64,000 nucleotides of DNA from Escherichia coli (lineage in GTDB: Bacteria; Pseudomonadota; Gammaproteobacteria; Enterobacterales; Enterobacteriaceae): NCBI RefSeq assembly GCF_046105845.1, contig NZ_CP151004.1. One strand, 5' to 3'. Each line of letters starts with the position of its first letter. Position 1 is the stretch's first letter. Positions 23,202 to 59,398 of this stretch are shown here, piece after piece. The notes below the pieces were generated by a model, which made no database searches, was not told the DNA's origin, and saw only the letters and a list, made by a program, of their open reading frames with translations. The position numbers were made by a program, and so were the translations under genes.

Positions 23202-23239
23202 TGAGAAAAGACCGGGTGGTATTACCACCCGGTTTGGAT

Positions 23240-36093: not shown

Positions 36094-36129
36094 GGTGGCT
36101 TAGCCAGGCTAAGCCACCGCCTTCTTTTT
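36094..36129 (+). terminator. hairpin terminator between convergent yigF and corA
   Basis: Stem-loop GGTGGCTTAGCCAGGCTAAGCCACC followed by GCCTTCTTTTT on the + strand; overlaps the corA stop codon. Confidence 0.5.
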
Positions 36130-39206: not shown

Positions 39207-39237
39207 GCGGAATGCGGTGTGGCGCACCGCATTCCGC
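39207..39237. other. perfect 13-bp inverted repeat (stem-loop) between convergent DUF62 gene and uvrD
   Basis: GCGGAATGCGGTG-tggcg-CACCGCATTCCGC; no flanking T-run on either strand. Confidence 0.6.
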
Positions 39238-57081: not shown

Positions 57082-58467
57082 TTATTCCTCCAGTTTATGC
57101 GCTTTACCGTGGCGATTAAGCCCAAAAACTTTATAAATCGCCGTCACCGCCAGCATAAAGATGATGCCGACAAACAGCGACATACGCGTATCTTCATTAA
57201 AGTACATGCCGATCAAAACGCAAATCAGGAATGCCATTGTTACGTAGTTGGCCCACGGGAACAGGATTGAGCGGAACGGATGGCTGGCAATCGCCGCTTT
57301 ATGCGCACGACGAAAACGCAGCTGGCTTATCAATATCACAAACCATGGCACCATCCCCGGAAGCACGCTGGCACTGTAGACGTAGACAAACACACGCTGC
57401 GGATTGGGAATGACGTAGTTCAGGCATGAGCCAATTAACAGGATAGCAATAGATACTGCCACACCCGCAACCGGTACGCCGTGACGGGAAACTTTCGCCA
57501 TCGCCGCCGGTAACTGACGGTTTTTCGCCAGTGCGTAGAGCATACGTCCGCAACTGTACATGCCGCTGTTACAGCCAGAGAGCGCAGCCGTCAGCACCAC
57601 AAAGTTGATTATGCCCGCCGCTGCGGTAATGCCGATTTTGGCGAAAGTCAGTACGAACGGGCTACCGTTGCTGCCTATTTCATTCCACGGGAAGATAGTA
57701 ACGATAACGAAAATCGCGCCTACGTAGAAAATCAGGATCCTCCACAGCACTTTGCCTACTGCACTGCGCAGCGTCACCTGCGGATTCTTCGCTTCACCGG
57801 CCGTAATGCCAATCAGCTCCACGCCCTGGTAGGACGCCACCACAATACACAGAGCGGTCAGGAACCCTTTCCAGCCACCCGCAAAGAAACCGCCATGCTC
57901 TGTGAGATTGCTAAAACCAATCGACTGCCCGCCATTGCCAAAGCCAAAGAAAATCACGCCCAGGCCAATGACAATCATCACGATAATCGTGGTGACTTTG
58001 ATCATCGCGAACCAGAACTCGATTTCGCCGTACAACCTCACCGCAGCCAGATTCGCCAACGCCACCAGCGCCACCGCGATCAATGCGGGTATCCACTGCG
58101 CCATCTCCGGGAACCAGAACTGGACATAAACGCCAATGGCGGTGATTTCTGAGATCCCCACCGCCATCCACATAAACCAGTAAGACCAGGCGGTGAGATA
58201 GCCAAAAAACGGGCTCATATAACGATGCGCATAAACGGCGAACGAACCGGTAACCGGTTCGAGGAACAACATTTCGCCCATTGAACGCATGATGAAAAAG
58301 ACGAACAGCCCGGCGATGATATAGGCCAACAATACGGATGGCCCGGCCCATTTCAGGGTACTGGCGGCCCCCATAAACAGGCCGACGCCAATGGTGCCCC
58401 CCAGGGCGATGAGTTCGATATGTCGAGCTTCCAGCCCACGCTGTAGCTCTGGTTTGTTATCTGCCAT
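57082..58467 (-). CDS. yifK: APC-family amino acid permease YifK
   Basis: 461-aa twelve-helix-type permease ORF recognised as YifK. Confidence 0.92.
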
Positions 58468-58601
58468 AAATCCTCGTGTTGTGTTTGCATGCTTTCCGGT
58501 GTTACCGGTTATCGTTATGGGTACATCGAGTGTTGCGAATGTTTTCGTAATTCAGGAGAAATGGCAAATAAAGCATTAAAAATTTGAATGCTTTGTGTAA
58601 T

Positions 58602-58639
58602 AAAAAAGCAGGAAGGCGACGAAGTGACCACTTCGTCGC
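58602..58639 (-). terminator. putative terminator at the end of the wec (ECA) operon
   Basis: On the minus strand, hairpin GCGACGAAGTGGTCACTTCGTCGC followed after 8 nt by TTTTTTATT; about 20 bp downstream of the wecG stop. Confidence 0.4.
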
Positions 58640-58657: not shown

Positions 58658-59398
58658 TCAGAGGTTGCCGGTGTAATGCCAGCGTAAATAACGCAGCAAA
58701 CGAAGCTGACGCTTAATGCGGCTCGGCTGCGAAAGCAGGCGGTAGAGCCACTCCAGCCCCAGCGTTTGCCAGATTTTCGGTGCACGTTTTACGTGACCGG
58801 TGAAAACATCATAAGTCCCGCCAACGCCCATATACAGCGCATCTGGATGCACCAGACGGCAGTCGCGCATGAAGATCTCCTGCTTTGGCGATCCCATCGC
58901 AACGGTGACGATTTGCGCTCCGCTGGCATGAATGCGTTCAAACAGCATCTGACGCTGCTCGGGTTTAAAATAACCATCCTGACTGCCAACGATATTCACA
59001 TTCCACTGGTTGCGTAGTTTAGCTTCAGTTTGCGCCAGCACTTCAGGTTTACCGCCCACAAGAAATACCGGTGTCCCTTCTTTGCCTGCGCGCGCCATCA
59101 GCTCTTCCCAGAGATCGGCCCCTGCAACGCGGGAAACCTGCGCCTGCGGGTACTTTTTACGTACTGAACGTACAACGCTGATGCCATCCGCATATTTAAA
59201 TTCGGCAGCGTTAATTAACTCCCGGACCTCGGCGTTATCTTCAATGGTCAGCATTTTTTCGGCATTAATGGCAACCAGCGTTCCCTGCTTAAGCTGCCCG
59301 TCAGCGAACAGATAATCGAGGGCGTGCTGCATATCACGCCAACCAATCAACTGTAAGCCACGCAGCGTATAGGTCGGTGCCGTGGTGTTGTTATTCAT
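58658..59398 (-). CDS. wecG: UDP-N-acetyl-D-mannosaminuronic acid transferase (ECA biosynthesis)
   Basis: 246-aa ORF recognised as WecG (RffM). Confidence 0.92.

Follow-up and report, generated by a model that had tools for sequence, protein, structure and literature searches.

What role, if any, is played by a short palindrome that lies between wecG and yifK in Escherichia coli? We addressed this question in a stretch of 64,000 nucleotides of E. coli DNA, referred to here as the window. The original prediction described an 8-bp inverted repeat with a 9-bp AT spacer, located about 100 bp upstream of the yifK start codon. The repeat, AAAGCATT-aaaaatttg-AATGCTTT, was present at exactly 58570-58594 and occurred once in the 64-kb window, and its near edge was measured at 103 bp upstream of the yifK ATG, with its center at 115 bp. 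On the yifK strand it reads AAAGCATT CAAATTTTT AATGCTTT, consisting of a promoter-distal arm (58587-58594, minus strand), a spacer with A or T at eight of its nine positions (58578-58586, minus strand), and a promoter-proximal arm (58570-58577, minus strand). Because the inner AAA of the spacer pairs with TTT, the whole 25-mer is complementary at 11 of 12 pairs around position 58582, making it a near-perfect palindrome that is assigned to neither strand.

The palindrome is flanked by two genes in the same orientation. yifK, also named thrP (57082-58467, minus strand), encodes a threonine/serine APC permease of 461 aa according to its open reading frame and annotation, and it was recently identified as a high-affinity threonine/serine permease (PMC10070963). 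Upstream lies wecG, or rffM (58658-59398, minus strand), with which the ECA cluster ends, and the argX-hisR-leuT-proM tRNA genes are located downstream of yifK. Over 321 bp, the region was 100% identical to E. coli strain 2012C-4502 and 97.5% identical to K-12. wecG is followed by a hairpin, GCGACGAAGU-GGUC-ACUUCGUCGC (58616-58639, minus strand), with paired stem differences among Escherichia strains (GAAGTG/CACTTC versus GGAGTG/CACTCC). A T-run at 58604-58609 follows this hairpin, which was not called in our terminator scan because the T-run is displaced by 8 nt from the stem. A CTGCT..TTTATTG motif around the T-run is kept across genera, even where the hairpin is absent. The palindrome starts approximately 10 bp downstream of the T-run and is probably outside the wec transcript. 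Genomic SELEX performed with minor-sigma holoenzymes gave a weak peak, with an intensity of 4.0, in the rffM-yifK spacer (Shimada et al. 2017; PMC5493296).

The promoter coordinates used for E. coli were transferred by homology from the Salmonella map (PMC3879156). Primer extension in Salmonella placed the 5' end of the yifK mRNA 64 nt before the AUG (Yang, Figueroa-Bossi and Bossi; PMC3879156), and this start is supported by an up-mutation, C to A at -33, which creates TTGACA and increases expression more than 10-fold (PMC3879156). Four bases of the Salmonella map, namely C at -33, U at +21 (AU-rich tract), G at +27 (CCGG stem), and G at +59 (SD), all land on matching E. coli bases, and the distance from the -35 to the ATG is equal in the two genera. 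Homology with Salmonella thus puts the yifK transcription start at 58531 (minus strand), 64 nt upstream of the AUG. The -35 hexamer is TTGCCA (58562-58567, minus strand), in which the C at 58564 is equivalent to Salmonella -33, and it is invariant in 68 orthologous regions. The -10 region, assigned from the position of the start, is AACATT (58538-58543, minus strand), which is ACCATT in most genera and lies inside the highly conserved AAACCATTCGC. With the Salmonella map transferred to the window, the palindrome extends from -63 to -39, has its center at -51, and stops two bases short of the -35 hexamer. The distal arm then occupies -63 to -56, the spacer -55 to -47, and the proximal arm -46 to -39, and the whole is 80% A/T.

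The yifK core promoter is weak, with TTGCCA as its -35 and AACATT as its -10. A core block, TTTGCCATTT-N5-AATT-N3-AAACCATTCGC (58537-58570, minus strand), was almost invariant among 68 distinct orthologous regions from the Enterobacteriaceae; in the orthologous loci (L001-L079) it precedes the conserved leader by about 35-70 nt. Since the match to sigma-70 is poor, with ACCATT or AACATT as the -10, yet the block is more conserved than a weak promoter needs, this suggests that a factor binds over the core promoter, and a real Lrp site may possibly be located there. Sigma-54, sigma-32, sigma-E, and sigma-28 were considered by eye as alternative readers of the conserved block and were rejected, given that spacings and key bases did not fit.

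Several observations were also made in the yifK 5'UTR (58468-58530, minus strand), which contains an AU-rich putative Hfq site, a CCGG hairpin, the GcvB target, and the SD. Its conserved GATGTACCCATAA holds a mini-ORF of three codons (ATG TAC CCA TAA; 58514-58525, minus strand), which overlaps the AU-rich segment suggested as a possible Hfq binder (PMC3879156). E. coli PM4, a pig isolate (L082), has a 7-bp deletion of TAACCGG at the equivalent of approximately 58503-58509, and half of the CCGG hairpin is gone. In Salmonella, G27A in the region of this hairpin raised yifK expression (PMC3879156). Many genera carry a conserved insert of approximately 70 nt in the 5'UTR (CATTGCAGTGCCGTGGTGTTTTTGCGCC ... 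GCATGGCCTGTTATG), found in loci L005-L012, L017, L019, L034, L046, L051, L053, L062, and L073 at about 1340-1440 in each locus, and absent from E. coli, Salmonella, and the E. cloacae complex. The insert had no match in Rfam, its predicted consensus structure was modest (-11.4 kcal/mol, with little covariation), and it may contain a short upstream ORF (MACY...) whose length varies.

How unusual is the symmetry itself? In the form given by the original prediction, it is unremarkable, since 8-bp inverted repeats are frequent: perfect repeats of this length with a spacer of 0-20 bp had 40 distinct centers in the 64-kb window, compared to 20.7 +/- 4.9 in Markov simulations. Palindromes of 24 or 25 bp with at least 11 of 12 pairs were much rarer, and five were seen in the window where 0.13 were expected. 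At least 11 of 12 pairs were reached in 0.16-0.2% of sequences simulated from the local AT-rich composition, corresponding to a local P of approximately 0.002. The other four such palindromes in the window are GC-rich hairpins, three at gene ends beside an opposite-strand ORF and one after wecG; the yifK palindrome alone is AT-rich, and it alone lies at a promoter. The three at gene ends (23210-23234, 36094-36118, and 39210-39234), with 11-12 of 12 pairs, are probably bidirectional intrinsic terminators. When the window was searched for additional copies of the dyad, allowing three mismatches at most, 5 matches were obtained versus 3.9 expected and, therefore, no regulon signal. Nor did the palindrome behave as a dispersed repeat of the REP, ERIC, or IRU type, having a median of one place per genome across 5424 E. 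coli genomes.

Conservation was compared at two scales. Within E. coli, a 40-mer spanning both the palindrome and the -35 box was identical in 5418 of 5424 complete genomes (99.9%) and is single-copy. For comparison, in the same genome set the 40-mer of the adjacent hairpin was identical in 4 genomes, and the one covering the spacer, -10, and start in 4047. A rare E. coli variant changes AAAGCATT to AAAACATT. Within Escherichia, only E. albertii differs in the palindrome, by two changes. For the wider comparison, 80 orthologous loci were retrieved, 71 were anchored on the -35 box, 68 of the regions were distinct, and 27 taxa could be aligned over the palindrome. The number of dyad pairs at -51, out of 12, was 11 in E. 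coli and the cryptic Escherichia clades, 9 in E. albertii, one Citrobacter sp., and the E. cloacae complex, 6-8 in other Enterobacter and Citrobacter, 4-7 in Klebsiella, and 3-4 in Salmonella. In distant genera the count was at background, and the region was unrecognizable. Footprinting of yifK upstream regions across species thus gave a divided answer: the dyad, as the consensus CATT-N9-AATG, is kept in Escherichia and in some Citrobacter and Enterobacter, but the distal arm is lost in Salmonella and Klebsiella, and farther off nothing of the region can be recognized. Species of the E. cloacae complex have a perfect repeat of their own, AATGCATT-N9-AATGCATT.

The alignment also revealed which bases are constrained. 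A-63, A-62, T-57, A-45, T-44, C-42, and T-40 were nearly invariant in the 27 alignable taxa, and the consensus of these taxa is itself a dyad, AATnCATT ... AATGCTTT. Of the bases in the proximal arm, A-45 and T-40 did not vary at all among these taxa. Across the orthologous regions, the T-tract at -52 to -47, A-45, and T-40 were moderately conserved and the distal arm poorly, with -60 to -58 variable among genera and the register lost in Salmonella and Klebsiella. The part of the T-tract at -51 to -47 was the most widely conserved portion of the palindrome in the 68 regions. Relative to an ancestral state derived from Citrobacter, Enterobacter, and Salmonella, the Escherichia lineage has acquired three substitutions, T-61A, T-53A, and T-52A, each of which adds a complementary pair and which together take the dyad from 8 to 11 pairs. 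Symmetry is added by 8 of the 75 possible single changes, and the naive probability for three of three is approximately 0.001, a value computed after the fact that also hinges on the guessed ancestor. The direction of these changes points to selection in the Escherichia lineage that may have acted on symmetry or on the A3T5 tract. As a separate observation, in Kluyvera and relatives (L022, L023, L028, and L031) the E. coli-type dyad is replaced by another perfect inverted repeat, of 12 bp, approximately 30-60 nt upstream of the -35. In L022 this repeat is ATGCATCACGCA-N5-TGCGTGATGCAT, and it shares the TGCATTCA motif.

If the two arms had been maintained as a paired stem, compensatory changes would be anticipated, and none were detected. 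In the 27-taxon alignment, 64.0% of the cells at the 11 pairs were paired, compared to 64.4% in column shuffles and 23-53% in slid registers, and the covariation score equaled the shuffle mean, with 247 of 500 shuffles reaching the observed value. Pairing at the shuffle level indicates that the symmetry belongs to the consensus and is not kept up by compensatory change. Two independently constrained half-sites would be the expected pattern if a protein recognized each of them. One apparent compensatory swap, between AAAGCATT/AATGCTTT in E. coli and AATGCATT/AATGCATT in Enterobacter at arm position 3, was not significant, as 14 of the 27 taxa are unpaired there. The lack of covariation, together with the weakness of the RNA hairpin (-5.3 kcal/mol), argues that the palindrome acts as DNA and not as a hairpin.

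The explanation that we prefer, to which we give a probability of roughly 40%, is that selection maintains the palindrome as part of the yifK/thrP promoter, most likely as an operator-type protein site abutting the -35. Both the binding of a protein and its identity are inferred. A symmetric dimeric or oligomeric transcription regulator would dock on the palindrome with its center at about -51, would occupy the stretch where the C-terminal domains of the RNA polymerase alpha subunits normally sit, and could in this way modulate recruitment of polymerase to the weak yifK promoter. The original prediction described the symmetry and spacing of the dyad as typical of a dimeric regulator site, and such a protein is plausible. 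Its position at -63 to -39, symmetry beyond chance, near-invariance in E. coli, a consensus dyad without hairpin covariation, and the substitutions that raised the symmetry are all consistent with that claim. Weighing on the other side, none of the factor consensus sequences tried was matched above chance, and the distal arm is not retained in Klebsiella or in Salmonella, the one organism in which control of yifK transcription by Lrp was demonstrated. The better conservation across genera of the T-tract and proximal arm, compared to the distal arm, also stands against an operator and would suit UP-like DNA equally well. In Salmonella, two hunts for cis mutants gave only the -33 change and two 5'UTR changes, and nothing upstream of the -35 (PMC3879156). 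A more specific version is that the dyad is the operator of a regulator new to yifK/thrP, for example an uncharacterized LysR-type or other dimeric factor. It would form a dedicated switch in Escherichia and the E. cloacae complex, sharpened by the three Escherichia substitutions and separate from the Lrp and GcvB controls; we regard this version as rather unlikely.

The strongest competitor, which we hold to be possible but doubtful, is that the palindrome is UP-element-like or A-tract DNA. Here the T-tract and flanking A/T at -54 to -44 would be contacted by the alpha C-terminal domains, or would be bent, to boost the weak core promoter, and the dyad would be a by-product of an A3T5 tract between similar bases. 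The palindrome sits at the location of UP elements, -60 to -40, the A3T5 tract of its spacer is at the position of the distal subsite, and the T bases at -51 to -47 coincide with the T-run of that subsite. The consensus of UP elements reportedly runs nnAAAWWTWTTTTnnnAAAnnn from -59 to -38 (Estrem et al. 1998). When the palindrome was placed in register with this consensus, the T-run at -51 to -47 fit and the A-runs did not; the full consensus was matched at 7 of 14 specified positions, and the best match in the scan was out of register. The wide conservation of the T-tract in the 68 regions agrees with UP-like DNA, but A/T-richness leaves the conserved C-42, the C-59/G-43 pair, and the distal AA at -63 and -62 unexplained, and T-61A added symmetry even though it lies outside the A-tract. 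In genomic SELEX, the rffM-yifK spacer was selected by RpoD holoenzyme alone (PMC3946193), and the core promoter is weak, with no yifK mRNA detected from the wild-type promoter in Salmonella (PMC3879156); both findings favor UP-like DNA. The two explanations are not exclusive, as a regulator bound at -51 would cover the alpha C-terminal-domain surface.

Another possible explanation is that the symmetry has no function and arose by chance in the AT-rich spacer between the wecG hairpin and the yifK -35, with its conservation in E. coli due to promoter adjacency alone. Inverted repeats of 8 bp are common, the perfect form is confined to Escherichia, one Citrobacter, and the E. cloacae complex, and the finding was selected post hoc, with no factor motif match and no significant covariation. 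Chance accounts poorly for the local P of 11 of 12 pairs, for the invariance in 99.9% of E. coli genomes of a segment whose neighboring intergenic stretches vary, and for the directional substitutions in the Escherichia lineage. In addition, mean dyad pairing over the 68 regions was highest at -51 among the centers upstream of the -35, while the center at -25 was higher overall. Taken together, we consider a functionless palindrome improbable.

Less probable still is a second sigma-70 promoter, ATTACA-15-TTTAAT, which the palindrome would simply overlap and whose -10 would lie inside the palindrome. The proposed -10, TTTAAT (58575-58580, minus strand), is widely conserved as part of TTTTTAATGC, but it has T and not A at hexamer position 2 (-11). 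The A at -11 is the most critical base of a -10 element. The 15-bp spacer also falls outside the 16-18 bp range of our promoter scan, which called 0 promoters. From RpoD holoenzyme SELEX, exactly ATTACA (58596-58601, minus strand) and TTTAAT were proposed for the rffM-yifK spacer (Shimada et al. 2014; PMC3946193), but these hexamers were chosen by best match, without a mapped start (PMC3946193), and the start mapped in Salmonella, 64 nt upstream of the AUG, is approximately 40 bp further downstream (PMC3879156).

The palindrome was also considered as an intrinsic terminator or structured RNA and rejected on account of its energy, its two G-C pairs, its 9-nt loop, and the absent covariation. 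An Rfam scan of the intergenic region returned only a sub-threshold match to isrF (E = 0.55), and the terminator scan left the palindrome uncalled. It is thus very improbable that it works as a nucleic-acid hairpin, whether as a back-up terminator or stabilizer for read-through RNA of the wec operon or as a cruciform: it folds in silico on both strands (z-scores of -2.8 and -3.4) and is followed by UUUAUUU on the yifK strand, but to the points already given must be added its place downstream of the T-run that follows the wecG hairpin.

To return to the preferred protein site, which regulators could bind it? Consensus sequences were scanned for Lrp, IHF, CRP, ArgR, TyrR, MetR, Nac, Fis, the NsrR half-site, and the UP element, with shuffle controls for Lrp and IHF only. 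None of the factors tried, including Lrp, ArgR, and CRP, gave a convincing match to these consensus sequences. CRP, ArgR, TyrR, MetR, Nac, Fis, and the NsrR half-site gave nothing convincing over the palindrome region, and the IHF consensus was matched at 8 of 9 positions, which is at chance level in shuffles. The best match to the 15-bp Lrp SELEX consensus, YAGHAWATTWTDCTR, was 11 of 15, a score of at least 11 being reached in 91% of local shuffles and by 441 sites in the window. Lrp is nevertheless the first candidate because it is the only regulator genetically implicated in yifK transcription, although nothing found here favors Lrp specifically. Salmonella keeps yifK silent in minimal medium, and a yifK-lacZ fusion is derepressed when lrp carries an insertion or leucine is supplied (PMC3879156). 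A paper on genomic SELEX with E. coli Lrp names oppA and livJ, but yifK, rffM, and wecG were not found in its text or accessible supplement; the accessible supplements of a 2023 Lrp paper likewise do not mention yifK. None of the retrieved papers that mention yifK assigns a factor to the palindrome, and no operator is reported to have been mapped for the Lrp-dependent silencing.

Should the palindrome prove to be the Lrp operator or to bind some other factor, our view of how a transporter at the junction of the Lrp and GcvB networks is regulated would be completed, and a handle for the engineering of threonine-production strains would be gained. If it is merely UP-like DNA, it represents routine promoter architecture. 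It is an ordinary element of a well-known class in an already characterized promoter.

Comparison with known systems places the palindrome near several of them. CytR recognizes the octamer GTTGCATT, and the NsrR half-site is AAnATGCATTT. The Enterobacter arms, AATGCATT, share a TGCATT/ATGCATT core with these and match the NsrR half-site at 7-8 of 10 positions, but the E. coli arms lack ATGCAT, and the cores are 17 bp apart compared to about 10-11. The palindrome also lacks flanking CRP sites, and there is no functional link to the nucleoside or NO regulons. LysR-type boxes have T-N11-A in an imperfect dyad, usually centered at about -65 and commonly beside a divergent regulator gene. T-57 and A-45, which are among the best conserved bases of the palindrome, form T-N11-A inside CATT-N9-AATG, although this pattern is generic. 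The center at -51 differs from the usual position, and there is no divergent LysR-type gene nearby, since the upstream wecG shares the orientation of yifK.

Lrp operators, such as those of ilvIH and oppA, resemble the palindrome in having an AT-rich center and terminal inverted repeats (YAGHAWATTWTDCTR) in the promoter of an amino-acid transporter, and the Salmonella orthologue is repressed by Lrp and derepressed by leucine. They differ in that the palindrome's arms are 17 bp apart from center to center, with AG..CT at N17 compared to N9 for Lrp, its 11 of 15 consensus match is at chance, and the dyad is missing in Salmonella. Salmonella yifK is still repressed by Lrp without the distal arm, which rules out the dyad as a conserved Lrp operator. 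The likeness to UP elements of the rrnB P1 type lies in the location directly upstream of the -35, the T-run, and the binding by holoenzyme alone in SELEX. The palindrome departs from them in matching their consensus only in part and in carrying conserved G/C positions and a dyad symmetry, which UP elements do not need.
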